A DNA stretch of 64,000 nucleotides from Candidatus Poribacteria bacterium (GCA_036339735.1 JAYZAL010000066.1:32001-96000), one strand, 5' to 3'; positions 1 through 22,292 are shown, counted from the first letter of the stretch. The notes: generated by a model not told the origin, from the letters alone. Numbers and translations: made by a program.

Positions 1-1204
1 GGTCCTGACTATTAACCTTAAATTTGGGGTAATTATCAAATTGGAGATGCCGACCTTGCATCCCAACTTCTCCATTCATCGCTTTCAGGTTTATTATCTG
101 TGCATCGTAGATTTGAAATAGCATTTGGTCTATGTACGGTAACTGATTTCCTACCCCGTCTACTTTCCAGTAATATGGGTTCCTTTCAAACACTATTTGC
201 TGCGCAGGCGGAGCCACTTTTAAAATCCAAGGCCAAAGGCGCGGTATCTCCGGGTTTTGCCAATCTGCTCGGTCTTCAAACAGCTGATACCAGAAATCAA
301 ACGATCTTTTCTTGGCCAAATCGGTCAGTTTTTCTACCGACACAAAATCTGGATGAAACTGTTTCAAGTAATGGGCTGGATATTCGACCATCGGATAACT
401 ACGACCCGAAGCTAATGCTTTCAGAAACAAACCGTAGGGACTGACAAACTTGAAACGAACTATATGGTCGGCTACTTTTTCCACTATCATCGGCACACCA
501 TCTCTCTGGAATTCACGCGGGGTGGTGGGTGTTAGTTGTGGATTCTGAATCACGTGGTTATACCAAAACAGAATATCATCAACTGAGAACAGTCTACCGT
601 CCGACCAGTGCACCTCCTGCCTCAGCCAAAATGTATAGGTCCTCCCCTGGTCACTGACTTTCCACTTGACAGCCAAGTTGGGCAAAATTTGTTGGGCCAT
701 CGGTCCCCAGCGAACCAGTCCATCATAGGCTAGTCGAGCCCGAAAAATACCAACATCCGGTGCGCTGGTACCATATCTTTGCCATTGACCACCGTAAGGA
801 CCATTTTGATCAGGCGGATAGATCACCAGTGGATTAAGAGGTAACCGCTCGGCAACCGGAGGTAGCGAAAGTTGATCCAGCATTGGTGCTTGCCTAAAAT
901 GGCGATTTTGTTCCCATTCACCGACAGTATGAACACCATCTTTCATTTGCTCAAATTTGTCTTTGGTCAAGGGTTCGAAATCTGAGCTAGTCGGACTAGA
1001 CAGTGCAGAAGACTGTAGATTAGTATCAAGAATCTCAGAGAAAGAGTCTAGGTCTTGTTTTTGCCCCCAGTGGGCCAAATGCCAAGTGATTCGAGCTAAG
1101 AAAAAGACCATCAGGAAAAGAAAGGAAGAGATAACAAGCAAACGCCAGCCAATAGACTGGAAGGCGGCGGCAAATTTTCGGATGGAATCAGACAAGGAAC
1201 TCAC
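1..1204 (-). CDS. ABC transporter substrate-binding protein, family 5 (OppA/DppA-like); 3' end runs off the window; missing from the ORF track
   Basis: Manual translation of the minus strand from GTG at 1204 gives an N-terminal hydrophobic segment, then LPPVAERLPLNPLVI..GPYGGQW, ILPNLAVKWKVSDQGRTYTFWLRQEVHWSDG and FERNPYYWKVDGVGNQLPYID, all typical family-5 SBP motifs. Start codon uncertain. Confidence 0.88.
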   Translation of the reverse strand, partial: MSSLSDSIRKFAAAFQSIGWRLLVISSFLFLMVFFLARITWHLAHWGQKQDLDSFSEILDTNLQSSALSSPTSSDFEPLTKDKFEQMKDGVHTVGEWEQNRHFRQAPMLDQLSLPPVAERLPLNPLVIYPPDQNGPYGGQWQRYGTSAPDVGIFRARLAYDGLVRWGPMAQQILPNLAVKWKVSDQGRTYTFWLRQEVHWSDGRLFSVDDILFWYNHVIQNPQLTPTTPREFQRDGVPMIVEKVADHIVRFKFVSPYGLFLKALASGRSYPMVEYPAHYLKQFHPDFVSVEKLTDLAKKRSFDFWYQLFEDRADWQNPEIPRLWPWILKVAPPAQQIVFERNPYYWKVDGVGNQLPYIDQMLFQIYDAQIINLKAMNGEVGMQGRHLQFDNYPKFKVNSQD

Positions 1205-7449: not shown

Positions 7450-8784
7450 TTGAAATATAAAACTAAAATTGGTTTTAGCAATGGTAGCGAGTCTGTTTGT
7501 ACTGGCAACCAATCCACTATTAATTCTTATTCACTTTTTTTACTTTTTGCTGTCTTTTTGATTCAACCATTGGCTGAATCAAAAATCATACCGATTCAAT
7601 CTTTTTATCAAACTCAGACCGTTTCCATCCAGTCAGGAGATACTCTTTGGAAATTAGCCCAAAAATACTACGGACATGGCCAAAATTGGACACACTTTCA
7701 AAGAGATAATCGTTTCACTGATCCACACATGGTTTATCCTGGTGATCAACTGAATATTCGTCTTCATGCTCCAGCTGGAGTTGGAATAATGAATAGTGCT
7801 AGGGCCGCCGTATCAGTAGTTGCGTCTACAGCTGGATTTGTAGATCCGGTTGTTTTGGAGTACGAGTGGGAAAATAAAAAATACCAAATTACTAACTCCG
7901 AATTCGTGACTGCCTTCCAAGATTTGCCCAGTTATAAACAAGAGAACTATGTAAGTGATGAAGGCGGAATTACTACTTATTTGGAAGAGTATGTTGGCGA
8001 AAAACTAAAGCTTTTAGCAGCGAGATCAAACGGCTTTGATAAAGATGATGATATTATTCGAAAAGCCGAAGATTACCGAAACCAATTGCTGGTCGAGCGA
8101 TTAACTGAAGTCGAAGTCGATGAGAAAATTGCCTATTCAGAAAAAGAATTGGTTGAATACTATGAGGAGAATAAGACTGAGTACATCGAAGAAGAAACTG
8201 TTCGGGCAACATGTGTTTCTCTAACTGATGAAAAGAAAGCTGAGAAAGCATATGCTATGTATCAAGAGGGGATCGATTTGGCTGAAATAGCTGAAACCTT
8301 CAAGAATGACTTGCAAGGTCCTGGCGATAGTCAGAATGATCCTGGCAACACTGGGGAATTTCGTCGAGATGCTAGTGAGAACTGGATGCCTTTCGTTGAA
8401 GCTATGTTCGGAATGGAAGTAGGAGAAGAGTCTACTGAACAAATGGAACTTGATGTTGGTGATAATGTATTCTACCTACTGTTCCGGAAGGAATCACAAA
8501 CGCCCGCACGACAACAAACGTTCGAAGAGGTTCGCGACAGCATCGTTACGATAATCGAGCAGCAGAAAAAACGAGAACGAATTTTGGCTTGGGTAGAAGA
8601 CGTAACAGCCAAAGGAAAGCTAAAGTTTTACCCAGATAAAGTCCCCGTACCCGAGGTACCATCCGATGATGAAGAGTCATCTGAAGAGTCATCTGAAGAG
8701 TCATCTGAAGAATCATCTGAAGAATCATCTGAAGAGTCATCTGAAGAATCATCTGAAGAATCAAATGCCGAGGAGGAAAAGTAG
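7450..8784 (+). CDS. Exported LysM + parvulin/PpiC-like foldase with acidic EESS tail
   Basis: LysM (IQSGDTLWKLAQKYYG...DPHMVYPGDQLNI), then a PrsA/PpiC-like body paralogous to the next gene. TTG start uncertain. Confidence 0.75.
   Translation: MKYKTKIGFSNGSESVCTGNQSTINSYSLFLLFAVFLIQPLAESKIIPIQSFYQTQTVSIQSGDTLWKLAQKYYGHGQNWTHFQRDNRFTDPHMVYPGDQLNIRLHAPAGVGIMNSARAAVSVVASTAGFVDPVVLEYEWENKKYQITNSEFVTAFQDLPSYKQENYVSDEGGITTYLEEYVGEKLKLLAARSNGFDKDDDIIRKAEDYRNQLLVERLTEVEVDEKIAYSEKELVEYYEENKTEYIEEETVRATCVSLTDEKKAEKAYAMYQEGIDLAEIAETFKNDLQGPGDSQNDPGNTGEFRRDASENWMPFVEAMFGMEVGEESTEQMELDVGDNVFYLLFRKESQTPARQQTFEEVRDSIVTIIEQQKKRERILAWVEDVTAKGKLKFYPDKVPVPEVPSDDEESSEESSEESSEESSEESSEESSEESSEESNAEEEK
8671..8763 (+). 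repeat. 12-bp coding tandem repeat GAAGARTCATCT x7.75 (EESS)
   Basis: Seven full units plus GAAGAATCA, varying only at one synonymous G/A position. Confidence 0.97.
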
Positions 8785-8786
8785 TA

Positions 8787-9800
8787 ATGCAGTACTATCT
8801 AAATACGATATGCAAATTTGGTCAAAGTTGTTTCTTGATAATCCTTGCAGTAATGTTAGGTTGTAGTGGTAAAGCCAATGCAATCGATGGTACTGTGATT
8901 GCTGAATTTGAGTGGAAAGGAAAGCACCAAATCACATTGGAAGAAATGATGGAGGAAATCAGTGAGTTACCTGAATACAAGCAAAATCAGTATGCGAAAA
9001 GTAAGGAAGGCCTCGTTGAATATATGACACTGATGGCGGAAAGCCGACTGATTTTGCTTATGGCTAAGGAACAAGATTTAGACCAGAAGGGAGAAATTAA
9101 AAGAAAGGTTCAAGAGTATCTTCATGAATTGATGGTGGAACAAATCACGGATATTGAAGTGGAACAGAAGGTCAAACCAACTGACGACGACTTTCAAACC
9201 TACTACGAAGAAAATAAAAAAGACTATGTAAGCCCAGATCAGGTTAGGGTTACCTGTATCGCTGTTTCCGATCAAGAAACAGCTACCAAGGCTTTGACAG
9301 AAATCCACCAAGAAGGACGAGATATCACTGAAATTGCGAGGGAATTATCCGATAAAGGCCAACTGGAAGGTCCAGGATCAGACCCAAGTAATCCTGGTGA
9401 TACCGATTTCTTCTCACGTGAGAGTTTTTCGCAGGTAGTCAAACCATTTGTAGATAAAGCGTTTGAAATGGAAATTGGCGATATAAACGAAGAGCTAGTT
9501 GAAGTAGAAGTCCAAGGCTCCAAGTACTACATGATATTTCGTAAAGAAGAGTTTAAAAAAGAGCGACAGAAGCCCTATGAGGAAGTCAAAGACGATGTCG
9601 CTTACGAAGCTGAAGAGAAGTTACGGTCAGACTTAACAAAAGCTTGGCTAGGTAAGTTAAAAGACCAGGCTTCCGTTAAGATATTTGGAGACCGAATTGA
9701 GTTGCCAAAGACTGAGGAGACAGAAAAAATGGAATCTGCGGGTGAAGGTACAAGTGATGAAGTAGAGAACGTGCCTTCCAATGAACCAGCGAAGGAGTAG
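8787..9800 (+). CDS. Parvulin/PpiC-like foldase lipoprotein
   Basis: Lipobox MLGC, YYEENKKDY..PDQVRVTCI, PGDTDFF..PFVDKAFEMEIGDI, RQKPYEEVK. Confidence 0.78.
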   Translation: MQYYLNTICKFGQSCFLIILAVMLGCSGKANAIDGTVIAEFEWKGKHQITLEEMMEEISELPEYKQNQYAKSKEGLVEYMTLMAESRLILLMAKEQDLDQKGEIKRKVQEYLHELMVEQITDIEVEQKVKPTDDDFQTYYEENKKDYVSPDQVRVTCIAVSDQETATKALTEIHQEGRDITEIARELSDKGQLEGPGSDPSNPGDTDFFSRESFSQVVKPFVDKAFEMEIGDINEELVEVEVQGSKYYMIFRKEEFKKERQKPYEEVKDDVAYEAEEKLRSDLTKAWLGKLKDQASVKIFGDRIELPKTEETEKMESAGEGTSDEVENVPSNEPAKE

Positions 9801-9861: not shown

Positions 9862-11256
9862 ATGAAATACTACCAACACATTACTCTTTTTGGTTTGGCC
9901 TTCTGCCAATGTATCGTTTTCGGCATACTAGATTTTGCGTCAGTGGAAGCCAAAACTTTTGACCGTATCATTGCTCAGGTCAACAATGAAATTATTACCG
10001 AATGGGAATTGACCACCTTAGTCAAGCAACGGTCAATTGAGTTACAGCGTGGATTCGGTGTCAATGACGAAGAGGCAATTCGTCAGGCTGAACAAGATAG
10101 ATCAAAATTGTTGGATCAGTATATCCGTCAATTATTGTTAGTTGAAACAGCTTTAACCTTAAAAGATCAAATTCAGGTTACTGATCAAGAAGTAGACCAG
10201 CGGATTAACACCTTTAAAGAAAGTGCAGGTATCGAAACAGAAAGTGATTTTCTGGAACAACTCAAAAGAGAAGGATTGACTTTTACAGCTTTCCGCGAGC
10301 AAACCAAACGAAATCTGATGGCAGAACGGCTGATCATGAAGCGAGTTTTACCTAAGCTACAGGTCAGAGATCAAGAAATAGAAGACTTTTTTTCCGAAAA
10401 CAGAGAGCAGTTTCCTAACAAAACAGATGAGGTTTATTTGAAGCACATTTTTATTCCTTATGAGCCCACAACGAACGACAAGAAGTTGACACGCCAGAAG
10501 GTTGAAAATGCAATTACAGACCTGACGCTCGGAGATAAATTCGAAGATATTGCTGCTCAGATGTCCATTAAAACAAGTTTAGATCGTCAGCAAACAACTG
10601 GTAAGATGGTAGAAATATCCTTAGATGAAATGAAAAGTTTGTCTACACTTTTTCAAAAATCATTAGCTGATTTAAGCTCTGGGCAAATTAGTCAACCGGT
10701 GGAGTCCGTCGATGGCTTCTACGTTTTTAGAGTTGAAAAAAAGAATGATCAAAAAATTGTTTTTCAATACTTTCTGACCCCCTTCCAGATCAGCCAAACT
10801 GCAAAAGAGAAGGCACTTCAAAAGTCAGAACAGCTTGTTGAAAAACTCGATCAAGGTAGTGACTTTGACCAAGTGCTGCAAACACACCGCCAAACAACTT
10901 CGGGGTATGACTCAGAACTCGAAAAAAATAGGTTTGGTGGAGACTTGGGATTTCAACCATTAGCCAATCTATCGACCGAAATTCGTAAAGTAGTCGAATC
11001 ATTGGGGGTTGGTGTTTATAGTGGCCCAGTTGAAACTAGTTCTGGGTTTCATATTTTTATTGTTATTGACAAACAGAAAAGCCAGTTAAATGAAAAAGAA
11101 AAAGAGCAGGTAAATCTTTACTTGAGAGATCAAAAGTTTCAAAAAGAATGGAAGAACTATACGAATCTTCTAATTGAATATTCATTTGTCAAATACTTTG
11201 ACCCAAAATTGATCATTGAACCGACTGAAAACGAGGGTGCCACGGCTATCGAATGA
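9862..11256 (+). CDS. surA: SurA-like periplasmic chaperone/PPIase
   Basis: Signal peptide, DRIIAQVNNEIITEWEL (SurA N-terminus), EVYLKHIFI, GGDLGF, SGPVETSSGFHIF; two parvulin domains. Confidence 0.8.
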   Translation: MKYYQHITLFGLAFCQCIVFGILDFASVEAKTFDRIIAQVNNEIITEWELTTLVKQRSIELQRGFGVNDEEAIRQAEQDRSKLLDQYIRQLLLVETALTLKDQIQVTDQEVDQRINTFKESAGIETESDFLEQLKREGLTFTAFREQTKRNLMAERLIMKRVLPKLQVRDQEIEDFFSENREQFPNKTDEVYLKHIFIPYEPTTNDKKLTRQKVENAITDLTLGDKFEDIAAQMSIKTSLDRQQTTGKMVEISLDEMKSLSTLFQKSLADLSSGQISQPVESVDGFYVFRVEKKNDQKIVFQYFLTPFQISQTAKEKALQKSEQLVEKLDQGSDFDQVLQTHRQTTSGYDSELEKNRFGGDLGFQPLANLSTEIRKVVESLGVGVYSGPVETSSGFHIFIVIDKQKSQLNEKEKEQVNLYLRDQKFQKEWKNYTNLLIEYSFVKYFDPKLIIEPTENEGATAIE

Positions 11257-14200
11257 CCCGCCCCAGTAATTCGGCGAGTCAGCAACAACTCTCTGCCATC
11301 CACGCTTTGTCTGTAAGCTTGCTCTCCGGTCTGTTCCTGTTGCTTCCATTCGGTCTTGACCACGTTTTGGCGCAAGATACATCAACTGGGCCCGTACTTA
11401 CCTCCCAAATAAATACCGAATCAAAAGATAATAACACTAGTGAGACACCACCGGTGCTCTCTCCTCAGCTTAATTCTCGGTCGGATCTTCTAAGACCAGA
11501 AGAAACAGAACCAGAAGAGGGTAAAATTATTGGTAAGGGAGATGAACTATTTCTAGTAGGAAATTTAGTTCACATTCATGGTAATGCACTAGTTAAGTCA
11601 GGAGATATGACTCTTTATGCTGACCACGTTTGGGCTGACTTCGATCAAAATCTACTACGAGCCTCTGGTAATGTTAGATTAATTTCTGGTCAAGAACGTA
11701 CTTACTCGAATGAACTTCTTTTCAATTTAGACAATAGAAAAGGTATTATCCGTCAAGGTTCGACTTATAGTGAACCCTGGTATTATCGGGGAAATGAAAT
11801 TTTCAAGACTGAGGACGACGAATCCTATATTCGCAAAGGATCATTGACTACCTGTTCCTTGAAACACCCACATTATTATTTCAGTAGTTCAGAGATTATA
11901 GTTAAGGTTGACAAAGAGTTGATTGCCAAAAATGTAGTCCTCAAAATTGGTGGAATTCCGCTTTTTTATATTCCAGCTTATCGTCGCGATTTACGTACCG
12001 ACAAATTAGCCAAGGTAATTGTAAGGTTAGGAACAGATAGCTATCAGGGACCATTTTTAAGCATTGAGTTGCCACTATCCCGCAAAAGGAGGCTGGATGC
12101 ACGTCTAATGTTCGACCATACCTCCAGAAGGGGACGTGGGGGAGGAGCCGATAGTACTTATCAAATTAACGATACACGTTATGATGAAATTTTTATCCCC
12201 ATCTTTCATGATGCCACTCCTAGCGAGAAGAAAAAATTAGAAGACCTCGCAACTGAGATTAGGGAAAAACTTGATGGAGATCATGATTCATACAAATTGA
12301 AGGAACTCTTCCTAGAATATCGGTTGGAGCCAGAGGATCTTGCTCGAGCCAAGGACAAAGTAGAAAAAATTTATAATAAACTAACAACTGATCTAATCAC
12401 GACCGAAGCTGATCAGCCATCCGATCCATTACCGTTAGGATCAGAAGCCGCTTTTGCACAAATCGCACAGGAGAACTCAGATCACCAAGAAACTCGCTAT
12501 GAGGGTGGAGATATGGGCTATATTATACGTGGTGAAGTCGACGAAGAAGGAAAACGACGACTAAGTCCTATGTTGGAGGATGCTGTTTTTTCATTGTCAG
12601 CTGGACAAATTAGTCCAATCCTAAAAACCAATTTTGCTTATCATATTTTTAGGGTCGATCATGTATTAGAAGTTTACGGAAAGAAAGAGATTAAGCTCCG
12701 CCGTATCGATATCAAAATTAGTCCGACGAGCGAAACGAAAGATCAAATACGCGAACTCGCTGATAAGATCCAAGAACAAGCAGTAGATGGTAAGGACTTA
12801 GCTGATTTGGCATTAAAAAACAAAGGTGCTATCTGGCGAAATGTCAATAATGGAGACTGGTTACCCCTAAACGAAATGGACGACAGATGGCAGTATTCGG
12901 TTAGACGGTTGGAAGAAGTGGGGGATGTAACTACAACGGTTATGACTGACAGAGGCGTACACATTTTTCAACTTGTTCAAAAAATGCCGACACCTACCTT
13001 CGCTGAATTAGCCAGCGAATTTGAGTCTCAGTACGGAGATTGGTTGCGTGAAGAGTATGAACGCCGCAAACCGGAAGAAAAAAAACAATCTCAGAGTTTT
13101 CTGATGGGTACAACTGCAGAGCGAGCCCCCCTCAAAAGAAAGCCTTCTAATATAGATGAGAAGAAGGAATTACCAAATCAAGCACCTTCGGAGACATCGA
13201 CAATTGATGAAGATGGAGTTGTAGAGCAAAAGGAACAATTAGAAGTTTTCCGTCAACATGACTTTCAGGGTAGTTGGCAAAATGAAAAGGCTGTTGCACG
13301 ACAAGCTCGTCAGTTAAATCGGGGCGAAACGAGTAACATTATCGATAGTAAAATAGGTTTCCACCTCATAGATATCAAAAAAAAGCGAACTTATCGGGGT
13401 GATTTTTACTTGTATGGCCAAGATCAATATTCCTATTCGCGAAAAGATGCTATGAAAATTGGGCGAGAATACGTTGCGCGGTGGGGGCATTATCATAGTA
13501 TCTACACACCTTGGGATAAACCAGAAGAGGGAAGAAAACCCCTTAACTTCATGGGAAGAGCTGAATGGCAAGCACGCCATTACGATGAAAATTATGGTAC
13601 ATCTGAATCGGCTATTCATTCTTTTGGTATGTTGACATGGGGAAATGCTTTTTCTGCTTGGGATACAGATGATCGCGATGCTGACGGCAATCTGAAATTT
13701 TCTACCAAAACTATTGGTGAGTTTTTAGGTCGTTTACAATTCAGTCATTCGTATGAATTAATCGAAAGTGATGTTGCATCTACCCTACAAAAACTACCTG
13801 AGTTATCTCTTCACTTTTCCCGAATGAGAATGAGTAACTTGCCTGTTTTTGAAACTATCAATGACACACTGGTCAAAATTTCGGAAAAAACAAAAACTAA
13901 TATACCTATATTGTCTCTCATATCTCTTCCTACTCTAGAAGATGCTTCATTTGATTTAGATATGAATTTAGGTAATTTTTTTAGAAAACGTTATGAAAAA
14001 GAGCAAGATGTTTATTTGAAAACAGGAGTGATGGGATTCGACATTCAAAAACAATCGACACTCAAGTTATCTTCTACACGGGAAGTTCGCCTAGATCTTG
14101 GCTTCGATTCTGATGCTGTATGGCATGATCGAGATCGGGATGGCCATAAAAACATTCTGAGGGGTATCTATAGCCTCAACGCCGATGCTCGCAACATATT

Positions 14201-15056
14201 ATTTCGTATCTATGACATTAGCTGGATTCCTGGAGCACGACGCCTAAGACACCAGATCAATTCTGGCGTGTATTTTAATTATCAGCCTGCCGTAGATCGG
14301 GATGAAAACAGCCGCTTATATCCCTTTGGACCAAGTACTTATTTTTACGAGCGCAAAGATATTAGCTACACATTAGAAACAAGCATTGAAATCAAAACGC
14401 GTAAGCATCGATCAGCTCTAAGATTGATCGATTTTCGCACCCAATTGCGTGGGGATTTTACAGAATATGCAGCTGAAAACAATAGGACTTATGATTATAT
14501 AGAGAGCGATATCACTCTCACACCACTACCCAATCGCACGATGAGTATTATCATGCGTACTACTCATGATCCTAACCCATCAGAGGTAGATGGGAAAAGA
14601 TTTAAACAAGTAGGTTTTCGCTCTAATTTTAGTTATCGTCGCGAAAAATGGAATCTAACTTTCGGTAACTCGTTCAGTAAACGAACAAGTTATGCCTCTC
14701 GTCGTATTAACACAAGTTTTCAATATCGTCCCAATTCAATGTTCGAAGTCGACTTTAATGCTGACTATGACTGGGTGGAAAAACAGTTTTATTCTCAAAG
14801 TTTAACCATTCGAAGGAACCTACATGATTGGGACTTGCGACTTTCCTGGCATCGGATTGGCATCAAAAGGCCACCTGATTTTAACAGTGTACGACAAGAT
14901 TTCACCTTTCAAATTAACCTGATTGCTGACTCAGCTGCTTCGGTTGGTCTCGGTTACGATGCAGTAACTGAGACTTGGGGCTTCCGTAGCCTGCCAGTTG
15001 GTGTACCTTATAACGCTTTTGGTGTTGGTAATGCTATGAGTCGCTCATATTTCTAA
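11253..15056 (+). CDS. lptD: LPS-assembly protein LptD-like beta-barrel with inserted parvulin-like domains
   Basis: OstA-like jellyroll (LYADHVWADFDQNLLRASGNVRL), GSLTTCSLKHPHYYF..KNVVLKIGGIPLFYIP, C-terminal barrel strands (RRNLHDWDLRLSW, DFTFQINL). Internal parvulin motifs at about 12177-13385. ATGA overlap with surA. Confidence 0.8.
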   Translation: MTRPSNSASQQQLSAIHALSVSLLSGLFLLLPFGLDHVLAQDTSTGPVLTSQINTESKDNNTSETPPVLSPQLNSRSDLLRPEETEPEEGKIIGKGDELFLVGNLVHIHGNALVKSGDMTLYADHVWADFDQNLLRASGNVRLISGQERTYSNELLFNLDNRKGIIRQGSTYSEPWYYRGNEIFKTEDDESYIRKGSLTTCSLKHPHYYFSSSEIIVKVDKELIAKNVVLKIGGIPLFYIPAYRRDLRTDKLAKVIVRLGTDSYQGPFLSIELPLSRKRRLDARLMFDHTSRRGRGGGADSTYQINDTRYDEIFIPIFHDATPSEKKKLEDLATEIREKLDGDHDSYKLKELFLEYRLEPEDLARAKDKVEKIYNKLTTDLITTEADQPSDPLPLGSEAAFAQIAQENSDHQETRYEGGDMGYIIRGEVDEEGKRRLSPMLEDAVFSLSAGQISPILKTNFAYHIFRVDHVLEVYGKKEIKLRRIDIKISPTSETKDQIRELADKIQEQAVDGKDLADLALKNKGAIWRNVNNGDWLPLNEMDDRWQYSVRRLEEVGDVTTTVMTDRGVHIFQLVQKMPTPTFAELASEFESQYGDWLREEYERRKPEEKKQSQSFLMGTTAERAPLKRKPSNIDEKKELPNQAPSETSTIDEDGVVEQKEQLEVFRQHDFQGSWQNEKAVARQARQLNRGETSNIIDSKIGFHLIDIKKKRTYRGDFYLYGQDQYSYSRKDAMKIGREYVARWGHYHSIYTPWDKPEEGRKPLNFMGRAEWQARHYDENYGTSESAIHSFGMLTWGNAFSAWDTDDRDADGNLKFSTKTIGEFLGRLQFSHSYELIESDVASTLQKLPELSLHFSRMRMSNLPVFETINDTLVKISEKTKTNIPILSLISLPTLEDASFDLDMNLGNFFRKRYEKEQDVYLKTGVMGFDIQKQSTLKLSSTREVRLDLGFDSDAVWHDRDRDGHKNILRGIYSLNADARNILFRIYDISWIPGARRLRHQINSGVYFNYQPAVDRDENSRLYPFGPSTYFYERKDISYTLETSIEIKTRKHRSALRLIDFRTQLRGDFTEYAAENNRTYDYIESDITLTPLPNRTMSIIMRTTHDPNPSEVDGKRFKQVGFRSNFSYRREKWNLTFGNSFSKRTSYASRRINTSFQYRPNSMFEVDFNADYDWVEKQFYSQSLTIRRNLHDWDLRLSWHRIGIKRPPDFNSVRQDFTFQINLIADSAASVGLGYDAVTETWGFRSLPVGVPYNAFGVGNAMSRSYF

Positions 15057-15281: not shown

Positions 15282-18200
15282 TTGGGTAAAAGGGGCTTGA
15301 GTTGCAAGGATAGCCAAGCGAGTATCAGTGTGCAGGCACCAATCACGGGAATTAGTCTAGGTGTCATTTGGTGGTATGTTCTTTGTTCATGTATCAGCGT
15401 TTATGCTGCCGATTTTGCCATTCCACCGCAAGTTCTTGACGATACGACAGAAATAGACGCAGTTTTTAGTCCCAATGGTGATAACATCCAAGATAAGGTC
15501 GTCATTGTCTTTGAAATGGATGGTACAACCGGTGAGTACGAGATAATCATCGATGTCCATGGGCCAGGCGGTGTTGGTAAACCTGACGGTCAGTTCAATG
15601 TAGATGATGACTGGTCAGTTTTAGGTAAGTTTGGCCCTGGTGTAACAATCAATGATGCCCCTAAGCGTTTTCGTATTGAATGGGATGGAAGAGATAGTGT
15701 TGCTGGAACAGCTAAAACTGTAACTGATGGAAACTATCAACTGCGCCTGCAAGTTGACTTTTTTCAGAATGAAATATTGGATCCAATACAGGATTCACAC
15801 TCCCAAATCTTTCCTATAATTGTTGATACAGAATCACCACAAACGTCGGCTAAGTTGGAAAGAACAGGCTTCTCACCCAATGGTGATGGTAACCGTGACC
15901 AACTACCTATTAACTATGTTTTAGGAGAACAATTATCCGGCCTGGAACTATTAGTTCCAAGCCATTCATCAATTCAATTATCGGACCTAGCAGCAGGCAA
16001 TCAAATTTTCAACTGGAATGGACAAGACGGGCTTGGAGCTGTTCTGCCAGACGAGTCTTACAATCTTCAATTAAGAAGTTTGGATTTAGCCGGTAACGAA
16101 AGTATCGTTTCTCTAGGGCAGATTTGGCTTGATACAAAAAAACCAACTATCAGCCAAATAATTCCATCTCCTGATGCCAAAGTGAATACTACAGTCAATG
16201 AGTTGATAGCTACCTTTGAAAGTGGAACAGGTAGTCAGATTGACTTTGATAACTCGATTATAAGTTTGACTCATCTTGATGAAACTATTCAAAATGGGAC
16301 TGTTAGTTATGAGAATATGACCTTGAGGCTAACATTAGAGAATTCTCTTAATTTGGCTTCAGAGAATGGGCTTTACACAGTGAATGTGCAAGCTGTTGAC
16401 CTCGCGGGAAATAGGGAAGTCTCAACTTTCAATTTGGTTTTTGATACGATTCAACCATCAGTACTACAAATTCGTCTCGATGAAGACAACTTGCGTGACC
16501 GAGTTCATGTTAATAGTAGTATCGGTTATATTGAGGCAGACCTAAGTGATAATCTTTCTGGATTAGATTTGGCAAATTCACTTCTGCAATTGTCAAAATC
16601 AGGTACAGTTGTAGATGGAGTTCAGTTACAGATCGATACCGATACAATTCGTTTTCAACTTAGCCGAGCACTTAAATCAGACGGGAGTGATGATGGAGCT
16701 TACGAAATCCTGCTTACGGTATTTGACACAGCGGGTAACAGTCAGGTACAAACACATCCGCTAGTTTACGATACTACAGCCCCTACTTTGATAGGAACAA
16801 ACCCTCCAGATCTTTCACAAGAAAAAGTCCGTATAGATCAAGCTGTAGCAACAATTGAGCTCACCTTTTCTGACCAAAACGATAATGTTGTTACTTCTGG
16901 GCTAAGCTTTGATGAGACGACAGTTTTTGTCACTAAAAGTGATGGAACGTTAGTCTCTACAATTAAGCAGGTCACTTCTCCTTCTAATTTAGAGCTACGC
17001 TTTTCTAGTTCTCTGACTGCTGGTGATTATACACTTTCATTCGTAGCAAGCGATAAAGCAGGCAATCAAGGAAAAGAAACTAACTATCCTTTCTATATCG
17101 ACCTGAGGGTACCAGAAATACAATTCACGCCAAATAACGTACCATTGGCTACATTAGAAGCAGTCTCAGCTCAATTGATAAACTATACTGGGATTGGTTT
17201 AGATCTGGTTAGGTCTAGCCTACTAGTTCAAGACGTTAGTGGTAATACGATTCCATCCCAAAAGACCGAGATAGTTGATCAATCTCTAGTTTGGCATATC
17301 AAAAACCAGTTACCAAAAAATGGAAGTCAAGATGGAAATTACATAGCCACGGCCAACTTTGCTGATTTTGAAGGTAGAACCTATACAGCGAGTTCGACCT
17401 TGACTGTTGATACGCTACCACCTACTATTGACAAGACCATCCCTGTTGATGGTTCGAAAGTCTCTGTCCTAAAAGAAGTTGACGTATTCCTAAACGACAA
17501 TTTAAGTGGAATTGACTTTAGTCAAACCGAAGTCTTGTTAAGTTCAGACGGTGGTACAATTTCTACCACAAAAAGTGATAATGGAGACAATCACATAAGA
17601 CTCACCTTTACTGACCGCCACGCGGACGGGTCGGCGGATGGTTTGTATACGGTTGGTATCACGGCAGTTGATTTAGCCGGAAATATTAGTGGGACTCAAA
17701 ACGTGTCCTTCTACCTAGTCACACAAAAGCCGGAAATTATTTCGGTTACACCGTCTGCTAACTCTCGAATCAATCATTTATCTACAATTTCTGCATCATT
17801 GTTGGATCTTAGTGGAAAGGGTATTGATTTTGATAAAACAACCATTACTTTGTCCAATTCTAGCGGTGAAGTTCTGGGTGGAACCTCATTAACACATACT
17901 GACTCACAGATCACATTAACAGGAATAGAATTACCTACAGATGGATCGGCAGATGGTATATATACTATGTTAATCACATTAGTAGATAAACTTGGTTCCA
18001 CAGCAGAAAAGCTGCAAAAAATTCACTATGATACGCAACCACCTGTCATGAGGACAAGCAATCAATCCTTCGAGAGACTATCAACAGACCAGGTGTCAGT
18101 TAGCTTCGAGGTAGTTGATTCCGGCAGTGGAATTGATATTACTAACTCTAGCCTACAGCTATCCAATACCGATGGAACAGTAGTCCCAGGCCAGTTTAGT

Positions 18201-21200
18201 TATGATGGTACAGCAAACCTCAGCTATAAGTCAGCTAAACTCAACGCTAGTGGCATTTATATGCTCCAAGTTGTACTTACAGATCAGGCAGGCAACAGCA
18301 GCATACCATATACTTTTTACTACGCATACGGGGTAGAGCTAGCAGAAGTTGTTGAGGTCACACCCCGTTTGACTAATAATTTGGAAGCGGTCGTTGTCAC
18401 ATTCAAGAGCCAGCAAAGTCTCGATTTTGAGCAGACGATTCTTGAACTGATAGCTCCGAATCAGCAAGTTGTTTCTGGTGTTATGACCAACGATGGTCAA
18501 CAACTGATAACCTTCACTCCAAGCATACCATTAGCTGTTGACGGAAGCCAAGACGGCGCTTACGCATTAACAATCCAGCCATCAGTTATGGCCATAGGCC
18601 GCTCAGATAAAAAGTGGTCTGGTGAAATTACTTTTGACACACAACCACCCGAAGTAAAGTCAATATCTTATATTACTCAACCTGAACAGTTAGCGGTTGA
18701 TTTGCAAGGCACGGTTGTGGGTTTACCCACACAATTTCAGTTGGTGTTAGCTGATACTATTAGTGGAATTAATGGGCAACAAACAACAGCTCAGTTGATT
18801 TCGCCTACAGGACAAGTTAGTACCACAAAATCCTTGAAAGCCGATATAGAAACCAATGAATACTCTATTAATCTAAGCCTAAACAGTCAGCCTAAACCTG
18901 ATCCTTCCGTAAATGGCGACTATGTTCTTGAAATTATAGCCGTTGACCTAGCTGGTAACTCAACGACCTACAGTCGTAGTTTTACAGTCATGTGGGCTGC
19001 AGCTACGGTTTCATCGACTCAACCAGCATCGTTTAGTAAACTGAATGAGTTGCAACGAGTCGACGTGATGCTTGAAAATATGGCCGAAACTGAAATTGAA
19101 AAAATGGCCACTGTTCGATTAGTAAGTCCAGACAACTCCGAGGTCGCAGGGCGACAAGAAGTTGTAGGTACTATGGTAAGTTGGATATTGGATCAACCAC
19201 CACCACAAGATGGAACTGCCGATGGAGTCTATACAATTCAATCCACGGTTCTTAAGAATGATCAGGTTCTGCTATCCGAAAACACCACATTCCTATATGA
19301 TACCAAAAGCCCTCAAGTTGATAGCGTAGTACTGCAGACAAACGAATTGACTGAACTGATACCTAGTCAAGTTATAATGGTTACAGAACCATTCTCTGCC
19401 ATAAAAATTAAGATAGTTGATCAGCTAGCAGGGACTGATTTGACGACCTCAACAGTTAGCCTGAGAACTAGTGAAGGTTTAGGGATCGAACAAGGCCTAA
19501 ATAATGGTACTGGCGAAGTTCTTGAGGTCAAGAATAATGGTATTGATACAATTACGGTTGAATTTGCAGAATTGAAATTAACTGGTATCTACACATTAGT
19601 GATTACACCAAAAGACTTGGCTGGTAATACTGGCCATCCATCGCTTTATCAAATTAACCTCAATCTCTCAAAGCCAAAACTCACTTCAATCAAAATTAGC
19701 GACCGACTGGGACTTGTCACAGCAGAATTAGCTAATGCGACCGCAGAGTATTCTACCATCGAAGTTGTGGGTCCTAATGGGCAAGTTATTGGTAAAACCA
19801 CAGAGGACAATCTTAAGAAACAAATTACTTGGACTCCGACAAATCTTGCTCAGGACGGTACTGATGATGGGGTTTATACGATTACGGTTACACCAGTTAA
19901 CAAGCAAGGTATATCCGGCCAAGTATTAGTAAAGCGGTTCACTTATGACACCCAAGAGCCTGAGATTAATAATATTACTGCTGTCGATCTAACACAACCG
20001 GTCTCTTATCTATCGAACCCAACGTCACAAATTACAGCAACGGTCTCTGATCTGGGACCAGCAGGGCTCGACACTGAACAACAAAAGATAACACTAATTG
20101 ACAGTAGTGGGCAAACTGTCAGCGCATTTTTAACTCATGATGGTAGAGAAAATCTATACTTCACTTTCAATCCATCGTTCGCCAAAGATGGGACTAACGA
20201 TGGAGAATATCAACTAGCTATTAACTTAATTGATAAGGCTGGTAACAAAAAAGACTTCACACATTCGGTATTTTATGATAGTTCTCCACCAACGCTGACC
20301 GATATTATTCCAGGCGATGGGGCTCTTCTTAAGGGAGAAATTAATCAGGTTACAGTTAATTTGGCTGACAAAAACGGAAGTGGTATCGATTTCAGTCTAA
20401 CGACCATTTCGGTAACAGATACTGAGGGCAATTCGGTGAGTGGTCAAATGAGCCACGATGGAAAGTCTAAAATAATCTTTAAAATTGATGATCTAGCACC
20501 AAGTGGATCCTATTTGGTTCGAGTTGAAGTCGCCGATCGAGCTGGTAATCAAGCCATATTCGAAAGCGGATTCACAAATTTGTCTAATTTACTTGTAGCT
20601 TCCTCCACTACACCTGTAACACGTCCAATTGAAAAGGCATTCAACCGAAAAAAACTAGATTCAGTTACAGTTCAACTGCCAAAAGATGTTGGGATCCACT
20701 TGTCTACGTTACATTTGGTCGACAGTAGTGGTCAAATGGTCATGGGGTACCAAGACCGTAATGGTTCTTCAGATTTACAATATCAGCTCCAAAAGCCATT
20801 GAAGGACGATGGATCAGATGATGGGACATATACTATTGTTTTTACTCCTATTAGCGCTAATGGGCAAAGAGGGCAACCACAACTTATGAGTTTCGTCCAC
20901 GATACAGTAGAGCCAGAAATCGATGATGGCCAAATTCGGCTGAATGTAGCTCAAGCAGGAGTTAATAACTCACTAGTATCAATTCAGCTACCAGTGTATG
21001 ACCCATCTCCATCTTCGGGTATAGACTGGTTAGAACGTCCATTGCCAATCGTAGTAACGTTAGAATCTTTCGCAAAGGAAAATATTGCAGGTCGGATTTT
21101 AGTTGAATCTGATAAAGAGGAGGTGACTTTTGTCCTAAACAAACCTCTGGCGAGTGACGGCAGCCAAGATGGGAAATATAAGCTGAAAGTCGATGTTACA

Positions 21201-22292
21201 GACCAAGCAGGTAATGACTTGAATTGGATTTATGATTTTGATTACGATACTCGTCCCCCAGAGATCCAAACCTCAGATTTACAGATTAATGGGCAGCCAC
21301 TAATTGTTGATGCTAACCATATCGACTACCCATCAGTTGCAGGTCGTGGTGGTTCAGTTATCATAACAGCCAAGATAAAGGATAGTGACGGTTTAGGGGT
21401 AGACTTATCAACTTCCAGCATAAATGTTATCTCACCAAGTGGTGAGGCCATAACCGGAGGCCTCACACAGAATGGAATTGATTTTCTGGTTTTTAGCTCA
21501 TCGCAATTATTGCCCAATCAAGGATACTATAGGGTGGTGATTACAAGCGTCGGGTTAGATCCTCAGAACTTGGGTTTCCAGCCGACAAAGACAATTAGTA
21601 CTGAATTCCTCTATGAGACATTACCACCGGTTGCAAGCCTCACTGATAGTGGTAAAGATAAGATTGAAGAAGGAGATGCCTTAACACTAAAAGGTGTAGC
21701 TTCAGATCCTGATAGTCAAGAAATACCAGCTTCTGGTGTTAGTCGTGTTGAGATTGTTGGTACAGGACCCGACGGAAAAGATATAGAACCGGCTGTAGCG
21801 GTGGACATGAGTAAAGGTGGTAGTAACCAATGGAGTAGCTGGAAAATTGATTACTTACCACCTAAATCTGGTAGATATGTATTGAGTGTTCGAGTTTATG
21901 ATAAAGCGGGTAATGCCGAAACTTATGAAAAGAAAGATGTTACTTTCACAGTTTCACTTGGATTCAAAGGTGAGACATTTTGTTGGCCTAATCCCGTATC
22001 GTTGTCTGCGTCATCTAGTGGTTCGGTGGCACATATATCTTTCGATCCTAATATAGCCAGTAATGATACAGCTAATCTGACCCTTAGTGTTTACGATTTA
22101 TCTGGTGACTTAGTCTATCGATATAAAGAACCTGATATAAAACCAGGTAGACAAGATACTACACTCAAATGGAATTTAAGTAATTCTTCTGGAAGTAAGG
22201 TCGCACGTGGTATTTACCTTTTTCGACTGGAAATAGTAAATGGCGTGGATGAATCATCCAATACGGTTGGTAAAATCCTAGTAGTGGAATAA
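15282..22292 (+). CDS. Giant exported Ig-like repeat protein (2336 aa) with FlgD-Ig/T9SS-CTD-like termini
   Basis: Signal-like N-terminus, two FSPNGD..D units, many ~100-aa repeats (SGID...DGS.DG.Y....A.D.AGN...F.YDT.PP), and C-terminal CWPNP..SVYDLSG..LKWNL....GSKVARGIYLFRL..GKILVVE. Confidence 0.8.
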   Translation: MGKRGLSCKDSQASISVQAPITGISLGVIWWYVLCSCISVYAADFAIPPQVLDDTTEIDAVFSPNGDNIQDKVVIVFEMDGTTGEYEIIIDVHGPGGVGKPDGQFNVDDDWSVLGKFGPGVTINDAPKRFRIEWDGRDSVAGTAKTVTDGNYQLRLQVDFFQNEILDPIQDSHSQIFPIIVDTESPQTSAKLERTGFSPNGDGNRDQLPINYVLGEQLSGLELLVPSHSSIQLSDLAAGNQIFNWNGQDGLGAVLPDESYNLQLRSLDLAGNESIVSLGQIWLDTKKPTISQIIPSPDAKVNTTVNELIATFESGTGSQIDFDNSIISLTHLDETIQNGTVSYENMTLRLTLENSLNLASENGLYTVNVQAVDLAGNREVSTFNLVFDTIQPSVLQIRLDEDNLRDRVHVNSSIGYIEADLSDNLSGLDLANSLLQLSKSGTVVDGVQLQIDTDTIRFQLSRALKSDGSDDGAYEILLTVFDTAGNSQVQTHPLVYDTTAPTLIGTNPPDLSQEKVRIDQAVATIELTFSDQNDNVVTSGLSFDETTVFVTKSDGTLVSTIKQVTSPSNLELRFSSSLTAGDYTLSFVASDKAGNQGKETNYPFYIDLRVPEIQFTPNNVPLATLEAVSAQLINYTGIGLDLVRSSLLVQDVSGNTIPSQKTEIVDQSLVWHIKNQLPKNGSQDGNYIATANFADFEGRTYTASSTLTVDTLPPTIDKTIPVDGSKVSVLKEVDVFLNDNLSGIDFSQTEVLLSSDGGTISTTKSDNGDNHIRLTFTDRHADGSADGLYTVGITAVDLAGNISGTQNVSFYLVTQKPEIISVTPSANSRINHLSTISASLLDLSGKGIDFDKTTITLSNSSGEVLGGTSLTHTDSQITLTGIELPTDGSADGIYTMLITLVDKLGSTAEKLQKIHYDTQPPVMRTSNQSFERLSTDQVSVSFEVVDSGSGIDITNSSLQLSNTDGTVVPGQFSYDGTANLSYKSAKLNASGIYMLQVVLTDQAGNSSIPYTFYYAYGVELAEVVEVTPRLTNNLEAVVVTFKSQQSLDFEQTILELIAPNQQVVSGVMTNDGQQLITFTPSIPLAVDGSQDGAYALTIQPSVMAIGRSDKKWSGEITFDTQPPEVKSISYITQPEQLAVDLQGTVVGLPTQFQLVLADTISGINGQQTTAQLISPTGQVSTTKSLKADIETNEYSINLSLNSQPKPDPSVNGDYVLEIIAVDLAGNSTTYSRSFTVMWAAATVSSTQPASFSKLNELQRVDVMLENMAETEIEKMATVRLVSPDNSEVAGRQEVVGTMVSWILDQPPPQDGTADGVYTIQSTVLKNDQVLLSENTTFLYDTKSPQVDSVVLQTNELTELIPSQVIMVTEPFSAIKIKIVDQLAGTDLTTSTVSLRTSEGLGIEQGLNNGTGEVLEVKNNGIDTITVEFAELKLTGIYTLVITPKDLAGNTGHPSLYQINLNLSKPKLTSIKISDRLGLVTAELANATAEYSTIEVVGPNGQVIGKTTEDNLKKQITWTPTNLAQDGTDDGVYTITVTPVNKQGISGQVLVKRFTYDTQEPEINNITAVDLTQPVSYLSNPTSQITATVSDLGPAGLDTEQQKITLIDSSGQTVSAFLTHDGRENLYFTFNPSFAKDGTNDGEYQLAINLIDKAGNKKDFTHSVFYDSSPPTLTDIIPGDGALLKGEINQVTVNLADKNGSGIDFSLTTISVTDTEGNSVSGQMSHDGKSKIIFKIDDLAPSGSYLVRVEVADRAGNQAIFESGFTNLSNLLVASSTTPVTRPIEKAFNRKKLDSVTVQLPKDVGIHLSTLHLVDSSGQMVMGYQDRNGSSDLQYQLQKPLKDDGSDDGTYTIVFTPISANGQRGQPQLMSFVHDTVEPEIDDGQIRLNVAQAGVNNSLVSIQLPVYDPSPSSGIDWLERPLPIVVTLESFAKENIAGRILVESDKEEVTFVLNKPLASDGSQDGKYKLKVDVTDQAGNDLNWIYDFDYDTRPPEIQTSDLQINGQPLIVDANHIDYPSVAGRGGSVIITAKIKDSDGLGVDLSTSSINVISPSGEAITGGLTQNGIDFLVFSSSQLLPNQGYYRVVITSVGLDPQNLGFQPTKTISTEFLYETLPPVASLTDSGKDKIEEGDALTLKGVASDPDSQEIPASGVSRVEIVGTGPDGKDIEPAVAVDMSKGGSNQWSSWKIDYLPPKSGRYVLSVRVYDKAGNAETYEKKDVTFTVSLGFKGETFCWPNPVSLSASSSGSVAHISFDPNIASNDTANLTLSVYDLSGDLVYRYKEPDIKPGRQDTTLKWNLSNSSGSKVARGIYLFRLEIVNGVDESSNTVGKILVVE

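Follow-up and report, generated by a model that had tools for sequence, protein, structure and literature searches.

A probable LptD of Candidatus Poribacteria with three parvulin-type domains between barrel strands 4 and 5

In the stretch of DNA analysed here, 64,000 nucleotides from a Candidatus Poribacteria bacterium (GCA_036339735.1, JAYZAL010000066.1:32001-96000; the whole stretch is called the window below), we found a single unbroken open reading frame (ORF) at 11253..15056 on the plus strand, which encodes a protein of 1267 amino acids (aa) with zero internal stops. We conclude with high confidence that this gene is the LptD orthologue of a Poribacteria-type bacterium, that it is the only LptD candidate in the genome, and that a module of about 400 aa, made of three parvulin domains, lies between strands 4 and 5 of the encoded beta-barrel. 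Fold, profile and genomic context would assign to the protein a role in the translocation of lipopolysaccharide (LPS) to the outer leaflet. As an overall explanation we favour, with moderate confidence, an LptD whose parvulin module acts in cis and non-enzymatically.

Results

The flanks of the module match LptD in fold and profile

We modelled aa 91-1267 with AlphaFold2 (AF2), leaving out the linker at aa 42-92. The model, built from 64 family sequences, has a mean predicted local distance difference test score (pLDDT) of 71.7 and a predicted template modelling score (pTM) of 0.48. In a Foldseek search of the PDB, the top matches were all full-length LptD proteins (4q35_A, E 6.6e-18 over 1211 alignment columns), and VIA aligned the model to LptD 9a39 with Z 20.1 and 554 aligned residues (model 1..1121 versus chain 51..745). 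The root-mean-square deviation (rmsd) of this last alignment is high, at 13.3, because domain placement differs. The jellyroll by itself (model 1-112) was aligned by VIA to LptA 2r1a_C with Z 14.0 and an rmsd of 1.7 over 112 residues. This part, a periplasmic beta-jellyroll (beta-taco) of the LptA/OstA type at aa ~93-245 (11529..11987; all parts of the gene given below lie on the plus strand), was also aligned by hhalign to residues 65-217 of Escherichia coli LptD (E 3.7e-4) and gave a weak PF03968 match (E 0.55).

Profile comparisons extend the match into the barrel. When the family was compared by hhalign with 30 canonical LptDs, we obtained a single colinear alignment of 641 columns (probability 100%, E 4.1e-59) that spans query 122-1255 and template 42-691; its aligned columns were viewed up to about query residue 862, and the few columns inside the insert are low-confidence placements. 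For the barrel from strand 5 to its end, a profile of 12 sequences, the deepest lineages among them, was run against 1.84 billion representatives and returned 13 proteins at E<=1e-30, then a gap, and then proteins of 670-1320 aa from E ~1e-20. Eighteen canonical LptDs outside the family, out of the 150 non-family matches listed, were examined. All 18 have a strong PF19838 match, mostly together with LptD_N or OstA_2, and a Rotamase match at E<=0.001 was found in none of them; their extra length consists of additional OstA/LptD_N repeats. As a lead only, the ESM Atlas gave two clusters of the protein's own kind at 0.99, all other rows listed being LptD clusters at 0.81-0.82.

A Pfam scan of the 1267-aa protein yielded parvulin-type families only and nothing in the first 330 or the last 547 residues, and a weak match to the CT351 barrel (E 0.007) was seen in the scan of the window protein. 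Because the Pfam LptD models miss the window protein, the LptD assignment rests on profile-profile and fold evidence. Among 30 members of the family, 9 match LptD_2 at E<=1 (best E 2.4e-6) and 5 match OstA_2. Across 61 genomes of the phylum, PF19838 gave at most one match per genome; it was present in 38 of the 61, above the cut-off in 34, and always inside the 1113-1399-aa frame of this gene. A profile of the whole family was also searched against PDB sequences; the best 60 of 67 matches were all parvulin proteins, since the parvulins dominate this profile.

In the window genome, which is 92% complete, we found no second match to PF04453 or PF19838, and the sole other PF03968 signal is that of this gene. 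The Lpt and lipid A genes of the genome include LpxC (E 1.5e-84), LptF/G (E 4.3e-81 and 4.2e-70) and an LptA-like protein (E 2.9e-9).

The insert folds as three parvulin units, one of them split

Rotamase matches the window protein with 91.1 bits (the Pfam cut-off is 21.7 bits) in three stretches, all within aa ~330-720. An AF2 model of the insert alone (aa 290-735, 69 sequences) reached a pLDDT of 81.5 and a pTM of 0.66, with 273 residues at 90 or above. Two of the units stand in tandem. Unit B (aa 346-475, 12288..12677) has its Rotamase match at aa 398-469 (E 2.6e-14), contains a variable loop of about 18 aa (aa 379-397), and matches in sequence the peptidyl-prolyl isomerase (PPIase) domain of PrsA, 2jzv_A (E 2.8e-5). 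Unit C (aa 476-582, 12678..12998) matches positions 14-115 of Rotamase_3 at aa 478-577 (E 1e-7). In VIA, units B and C superpose on the tandem parvulins of 8hm4_A (Z 16.2, rmsd 4.8, 207 aligned), a single unit aligns with the P1 domain of SurA, 2pv1_A (Z 13.7, rmsd 2.0, 98/103 aligned), and Pin1, PrsA and Ess1 align with the insert model at Z 10-11.

The remaining unit, A, appears to be divided between the two ends of the insert. Single parvulins align over residues 14..421 of the insert model, as seen for Pin1 9ino_B (Z 11.2, rmsd 2.8, 101 aligned) and PrsA 1zk6 (Z 10.5, rmsd 1.9, 87/91 aligned), and these ranges fit a third parvulin made from both insert ends. The N-terminal half of unit A (strand 1 and helix 1; aa 308-345, 12174..12287; DSSP E19-27 and H34-52 of the insert model, pLDDT >90) can be aligned to the same two elements of the SurA parvulins and gave no Pfam match when scanned alone. 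Its C-terminal half (aa 663-711, 13239..13385; DSSP E377-383, H390-398, E413-421 and then E424-433) matches the Rotamase model in its final third only (aa 669-709 against positions 62-96, E 8.2e-4). A long helix at aa 583-606 (12999..13070; H294-315 in the insert model), which we assign to the split unit A, is probably its counterpart of parvulin helix 2, as its motif and the 14..421 ranges suggest. The segment at aa 607-662 (13071..13238) is predicted to be a disordered charged linker, with pLDDT <50 at insert-model residues 321-371, and is poorly conserved (mean identity 0.15 to the window sequence). Taken together, the model fits a nested layout in which the split unit A would enclose the tandem units B and C, the helix and the linker.

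The full-length model further shows how the module is joined to the barrel. Barrel strand 4 and the first strand of unit A are continuous (E206-226), as are the last strand of unit A and barrel strand 5 (E612-634). These continuous strands at both ends indicate that unit A is mounted rigidly on an extended barrel hairpin.

No SurA_N family was detected in the 1267-aa protein at E<=0.1, as against an E of 1.9e-13 for SurA_N_3 in the gene upstream, and SurA 1m5y_B aligns to the insert over its residues 172-384 only. Mean identity to the window sequence is 0.50 for unit B, 0.47 for unit C and 0.55 for strand 5. Judged from the aligned sequences, the module is conserved about as well as the barrel, a pattern of purifying conservation.

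The insert lies at the barrel's periplasmic side

DSSP assigns to the full-length model about 12 jellyroll strands, four strands, the parvulin region, and then 22 strands up to residue 1133, after which two short low-confidence strands and a conserved tail follow. Both AF2 models put the end of strand 4 at about aa 307 and the start of strand 5 at about aa 712. Strands 1-4 (aa ~250-307, 12000..12173) correspond to E164-169, E178-184, E194-198 and the start of E206-226 of the model, and this pre-insert part is colinear with canonical LptD, with no large gaps, up to template column 260. By hhalign, the joint motif at E. coli residue ~217 corresponds to aa ~244 here, and VIA pairs model residues 204/205 with E. 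coli 269/270. In E. coli LptD, strands 1 and 2 contain P231 and P246 (PMC6164715), and we confirmed both residues in the E. coli LptD sequence. From the spacing, and from conserved Pro and Arg-Arg-Gly landmarks aligned by eye, E. coli strand 4 falls at residues ~269-279 and the turn to strand 5 at 280-285. The end pairs that VIA gives for partial LptD entries (e.g. 650/289) are off from the sequence anchors, and they were excluded from this fine mapping.

Because the jellyroll is periplasmic and four strands precede the insert, the insert is placed in a periplasmic turn. Connections of the same parity measure 2-7 residues in the barrel's C-terminal half, against 4-22 for those of the opposite parity; this is the usual pattern of short periplasmic turns, and so it agrees with a periplasmic insert. 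The connection between strands 10 and 11, where deep lineages carry a fourth parvulin (see below), has the same parity, and thus the same side, as the main insert. In the model, the module would hang into the periplasm beside the jellyroll, three to four strands from the lateral gate. A complex prediction of the jellyroll (aa 91-250) with the insert (aa 297-729) scored 0.00; made without controls, it gives no verdict and carries no weight either way. We also considered that the module might plug the barrel lumen, like LptE or the usher plug, and rated this idea low; an LptE candidate exists in the genome.

The parvulin units have lost the first catalytic histidine

We mapped the parvulin His pair, which we take to be the catalytic pair of Pin1 and Par10, through alignment with P1 and P2 of E. 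coli SurA and counted residues in 69 sequences. The first His is present in 0 of 69 sequences in each of units A, B and C. It is replaced by Glu in unit A (65/69), mostly by Gln in unit B (57/69) and by Arg in unit C (64/69), where an Arg-Ile-Asp motif at this site is conserved in 63-64 of the 69. The second His is kept in unit B in 65 sequences, in unit C in 10 and in unit A in 9; the position is mostly Tyr in unit C (58/69) and mostly Arg in unit A (58/69). Unit B also has an invariant Ser409, and its invariant Gly 419 and 422 flank a mostly Asp-Met pair. Unit A is without the loop that normally bears the Asp/Cys residue and has the disordered linker there instead. Since not one of the 69 sequences has the first catalytic His in any of the three units, we consider an enzymatic foldase activity unlikely.

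A first-pass annotation of the window had read this gene as an LptD that carries its own SurA-like foldase, a parvulin cassette of about 400 aa inside the barrel. Its LptD identity is borne out by the Foldseek, VIA and hhalign results on the flanks. The interval that it gave for the cassette, 12177-13385, is aa 309-711 and agrees with the strand limits at ~307 and ~712; the unit that it quoted is aa 398-469, whose Rotamase match (E 2.6e-14) was obtained on that segment scanned alone. As it described, first barrel strands, four of them between jellyroll and insert, are followed by the insert before the barrel resumes, and the parvulin fold of the insert was confirmed by the alignment with SurA P1. 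The phrase "own SurA-like foldase" holds for the parvulin domains, but not for the rest: there is no SurA_N core, 1m5y aligns only over 172-384, and the first His is found in 0 of 69. A complete SurA gene moreover stands directly upstream. The proposal that an AF2 model would show whether the barrel closes around the insert, and which face the insert projects from, was answered in part, in that the flanks match one LptD and the insert falls on the periplasmic side.

The architecture is shared across the phylum

A word-indexed homologue search gave 316 proteins. The best 120 of these are 1143-1393 aa long and all have Rotamase families, and the named homologues among those listed are from Candidatus Poribacteria, annotated as "peptidylprolyl isomerase" or "hypothetical protein". 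We found the gene in 174 of 176 genomes of the phylum and in all 133 of good quality (133/133); the two genomes without a match are 90% and 81% complete. Many of the carrier genomes are assembled as a single contig, and no internal stop interrupts the matches listed. In the deepest families the layout is the same, in frames of 1120-1319 aa. Two of them, in genomes G001 and G003 (L031:499-2529 and L032:1-1998, both on the minus strand), have one more parvulin, the fourth, at a site equivalent to that between window aa 889 and 890, with Rotamase matches of E 1.8e-17 and 3.9e-13.

The first-pass annotation had raised the possibilities of a chimeric assembly and of the same architecture in related genomes. 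The former is excluded, because contigs from two independent DNA runs bridge both insert junctions, with no joints or indels reported (X12 record 8 covers 9862-13678; X10 records 3 and 6 cover 10672-12328 and 13311-14703), and the latter was found, as described above. The annotation had not recognised the architecture as characterised, and our full-text literature search, which had subscription journals and supplements outside its range, likewise turned up no LptD described as having a parvulin or PPIase domain. Together, these results indicate a design that is common to the whole phylum and apparently undescribed.

Contigs from two metatranscriptome libraries also touch the gene: X15 record 17 spans the surA/lptD boundary (10723-11442) and X16 record 28 spans the 3' insert junction (13313-13545). 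Such RNA-library contigs prove neither transcription nor a single transcript, and stretches without RNA cover carry no meaning. The runs that contain this DNA are labelled as marine or seawater metagenome, or are unlabelled.

Remaining parts of the gene

The start codon and a predicted signal peptide (aa 1-41) occupy 11253..11375; the N-terminus is hydrophobic and has an Ala-x-Ala-like site, the cleavage being judged by eye. A family-variable, low-complexity linker rich in Ser, Thr, Pro and Glu follows (aa 42-92, 11376..11528), in which the family consensus has no conserved residues. Beyond the insert, strands 5 to ~26 of the barrel extend over aa 712-1223 (13386..14921), and comprise the 22 DSSP strands up to model residue 1133 as well as the region of the Foldseek and VIA matches to LptD barrels. 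Within them, the connection between strands 10 and 11 is helical and 38 aa long (aa 860-897, 13830..13943; model H774-789 and H795-798).

The C-terminal tail, aa 1224-1267, ends in Phe and with the stop codon occupies 14922..15056. This segment of 44 aa (14922-15053) lies after the last confident strand and contains many invariant residues, among them Trp, Gly and Pro, at a pLDDT <50. The LptD barrel is described as having 26 strands in Proteobacteria (PMC6164715) and 27 in Bacteroidota (bioRxiv 10.64898/2026.10.03.756453). The tail may add one strand or more to the barrel, in the manner of the 27-strand LptD of Bacteroidota, or may be tucked into it.

The gene follows surA in a run of folding-catalyst genes

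The ATG of the lptD-like ORF shares 4 bases with the stop codon of the gene upstream, which encodes a stand-alone SurA of 464 aa (9862..11256, plus strand) with a SurA_N core and two parvulins (Pfam SurA_N_3 E 1.9e-13, Rotamase E 1.2e-22; NCBIfam SurA E 4.5e-27, below the cut-off of that model). A SurA-like frame is likewise found upstream in three deep lineages (G001, G003 and G017). Two further parvulin-type genes identified by Pfam precede surA on the plus strand, one with LysM and Rotamase_2 (7450-8784) and one with Rotamase_2 (8787-9800). Two cyclophilin genes (1357-1995 and 1976-2563) stand on the same strand, with DUF3108 and mfd between them and the parvulin genes. Thus lptD is preceded by a run of folding-catalyst genes: two cyclophilins, two parvulin-type genes and SurA. 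Downstream, 15282-22292 encodes a 2336-aa protein with bacterial Ig-like repeats (Big_13, Big_3_2, Big_5), whose FlgD_ig/CHU_C-like C-terminus resembles a type IX secretion sorting domain.

We compared the three units by BLAST with the three neighbouring parvulin genes and with E. coli SurA and found 24-40% identity over short stretches; units A, B and C gave no BLAST match to each other. A recent copy from the adjacent surA left no sign in these comparisons, and we dropped the idea as untestable at this divergence. On this sequence evidence the insertion is old, and its source is not traceable by BLAST.

Elsewhere in the genome, the LptF and LptG matches lie in one open frame of 758 aa (G000:C6:75920-78154; loci L025 and L026), which suggests that the two genes are fused. 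A 187-aa lipobox protein (L034:1282-1845, on G000:C36) has a weak match to the LptE family PF04390 (E 0.003-0.005, below the cut-off) and is the only LptE candidate in the genome.

Discussion

A possible role in cis

Our favoured explanation is an LptD with a non-enzymatic parvulin module that acts on its own chain. We suggest that the module is a packing or peptide-binding unit, similar to SurA P1. Its task during biogenesis would be to hold or organise the N-terminal part of the very large barrel, and it could possibly dock onto SurA or BAM; in E. coli LptD, the N-terminal part of the barrel is understood to assemble last. Once the translocon is finished, the module would stay in place and, as a brace, tie the jellyroll to the barrel's N-side. 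Bearing on the idea of a brace, the barrel has no Cys and so cannot form the interdomain disulfides that serve this purpose, together with LptM and LptY, in Enterobacteria; in Bacteroidota, additional subunits take that part. By analogy, then, the module might serve as an assembly aid first and as a brace afterwards, a specific role that we regard as a reasonable candidate but stop just short of calling probable.

Several observations weigh against the reading of the gene and its module given here. With regard to the LptD assignment, hhalign to E. coli LptD alone covered just the jellyroll, at a probability of 36.5%; Pfam and NCBIfam scans of the window protein, and of its flanks alone, gave no LptD or OstA match, with pieces considered up to E<=10; and no PF19838 match was found in 23 of the 61 phylum genomes. 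With regard to the layout, single-domain alignment ranges such as 55..291 do not match simple unit limits, so that the nesting is unproven in detail; strands 1-3 have a pLDDT <50 in a full-length model with a pTM of 0.48, and side and strand count were taken from DSSP, not from coordinates; and the strand total read from the model (4 + 22, plus two low-confidence strands and the tail) could be 26, 27 or 28. With regard to function, the proposed role in cis-assembly and bracing is argued from position, rigid attachment, lost catalytic residues and analogy; a cis chaperone is not obviously needed where a complete SurA and two parvulin genes lie upstream; and a missing His does not strictly rule out residual isomerase activity.

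Alternative explanations

The main rival, which we consider somewhat unlikely, is the docking platform proposed in the first-pass annotation: the module could work in trans, as a holdase or dock fixed at the translocon's periplasmic mouth, and receive other envelope cargo such as unfolded outer-membrane proteins (OMPs) or surface lipoproteins exported through LptD. The units do most resemble the peptide-binding SurA P1 (2pv1_A, solved with bound peptide), several parvulins would sit on the periplasmic rim, with a fourth on another connection in the deepest lineages, and the gene lies within a run of folding-catalyst genes. However, there is no known client; the SurA core domain, which in E. 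coli is understood to carry most of the chaperone activity, is absent; and a unit A that is rigid in the barrel hairpin is at least as much in keeping with a structural part as with a receptor. The Bacteroidota LPS translocon bears on both sides of the question, since it exports surface lipoproteins too and its authors suggest a conserved second function, but their preprint contains 0 occurrences of parvulin, PPIase, SurA or chaperone (bioRxiv 10.64898/2026.10.03.756453). A broader version, which strikes us as speculative and unlikely to be right, is that the Poribacteria LPS translocon doubles as a protein-handling station, in which a ring of catalytically dead parvulins in periplasmic turns of LptD (to judge from the sequences, most lineages have three, and the deepest have four spread over two turns) would be a receptor or holdase for LptD's nascent chain or for other cargo.

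That the units are active PPIases, and thus a true foldase built into LptD for LptD itself or for clients, seems improbable to us. The strong Rotamase match of 91.1 bits would suit such enzymes, as would unit B, which keeps the second His (65/69), Ser409 and Gly 419/422, but no sequence of the 69 has the first His in any of the three units, most have lost the second His in units C and A, and unit A is without the Asp/Cys loop. We give very little credence to an extracellular-loop position, in which the module would be exposed on the cell surface, perhaps as an adhesin or a domain for host interaction. Strands 1-3 have a pLDDT <50 and a miscount by one strand would flip the side, and many of the named relatives are Candidatus Poribacteria, a group known as sponge symbionts; against this, four strands before the insert are counted both by DSSP and from the colinearity, free of gaps, with strands 1-4 of canonical and E. 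coli LptD, the second insertion site between strands 10 and 11 has the same parity, and connections of that parity are short (2-7 versus 4-22 residues). Finally, an artefact, be it a chimera, a gene fusion through sequencing error or a barrel that is not LptD, is scarcely credible: the window protein alone has no Pfam LptD match, but the gene is present in 174 of 176 genomes, both junctions are bridged by DNA contigs, and the fold and profile evidence for LptD is strong.

Implications

Few outer-membrane proteins are harder to fold than LptD, which is also essential and a target of antibiotics. The solved LptDs that the model matched all consist of jellyroll and barrel with no parvulin, and we know of no solved LptD with a foreign folded domain in a barrel turn. 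The present protein suggests that about 400 aa of folded protein can be accommodated in the turn between strands 4 and 5. It thereby offers a natural experiment from which one may learn how the jellyroll is kept at the gate in lineages that have no interdomain disulfides, and what role inactive parvulins play. If the translocon did handle proteins as well, the very large barrel might be largely self-chaperoning, or surface lipoproteins and OMPs might be exported or assembled next to the lateral gate, and LPS export and envelope-protein biogenesis would be coupled in one polypeptide. There is also a practical consequence: with a systematic mis-annotation as "peptidylprolyl isomerase" or "hypothetical" and with the Pfam LptD models missing many of these proteins, LPS surveys may score Poribacteria as lacking LptD. 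Work of 2025-2026 describes LPS translocons as elaborated differently by phylum and as possibly exporting lipoproteins as well (bioRxiv 10.1101/2025.04.10.648201; bioRxiv 10.64898/2026.10.03.756453).

Comparison with known systems

Like the LptDs of Enterobacteria (E. coli, Shigella, Klebsiella; 4q35, 4rhb, 5iv9, 9ia0), the protein has an LptA-like jellyroll followed by a very large barrel. Its jellyroll/barrel joint motif, Pro-x-Phe-Tyr-x-Pro, aligns with that of E. coli LptD, and its Cys201 (11853-11855) aligns with C173. The genes lptD and surA are adjacent in both, but the order is surA-lptD here and lptD-surA in E. coli. What sets the two proteins apart is the turn between strands 4 and 5, which has 6 residues in E. 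coli (280-285) and about 400 aa of parvulin domains here. C201 in the jellyroll is the one Cys of the mature protein, and barrel Cys were found in 0 of 30 family members; with no barrel Cys, the enterobacterial interdomain disulfides cannot form here. Such disulfides are a feature of enterobacterial LptD and are not universal in the LptD family. In E. coli, two disulfides link the jellyroll to the barrel, and LptY and LptM stabilise it (bioRxiv 10.1101/2025.04.10.648201). The module proposed here would resemble LptM and LptY, by analogy, as a periplasm-side element with a role in stabilising the jellyroll or the interface between jellyroll and barrel; unlike the module, those two are separate small lipoproteins of unrelated folds, LptY being lipocalin-like.

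A second likeness is to the LptD of Bacteroidota, in which, according to bioRxiv 10.64898/2026.10.03.756453, there is also a lineage-specific elaboration around the jellyroll and gate and, as here, no disulfide tie. The additions of the Bacteroidota are described there as separate subunits (LptN, LptT and others), whereas the parvulin folds of the present protein are in the LptD chain. The nearest sequence relatives of the barrel are the LptD_2-type (PF19838) LptDs of other phyla. In the PapC and FimD ushers, a folded soluble domain, the plug, lies between two outer-membrane barrel strands on the periplasmic side; this is a precedent for the placement of the module, although that domain gates the lumen and has a different fold.

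With SurA (1m5y) and the SurA-like PPIase of Bacteroides fragilis (8hm4), the protein shares tandem parvulins, its units B and C, and its unit A begins with a stretch similar to strand 1 of SurA P1. Unlike SurA, it has no N/C core chaperone domain, it has lost the first His, and one of its parvulins is split around the two others. Because the core domain is absent, it does not belong to the SurA family; by fold, profile and genomic role, it is a member of the LptD family.

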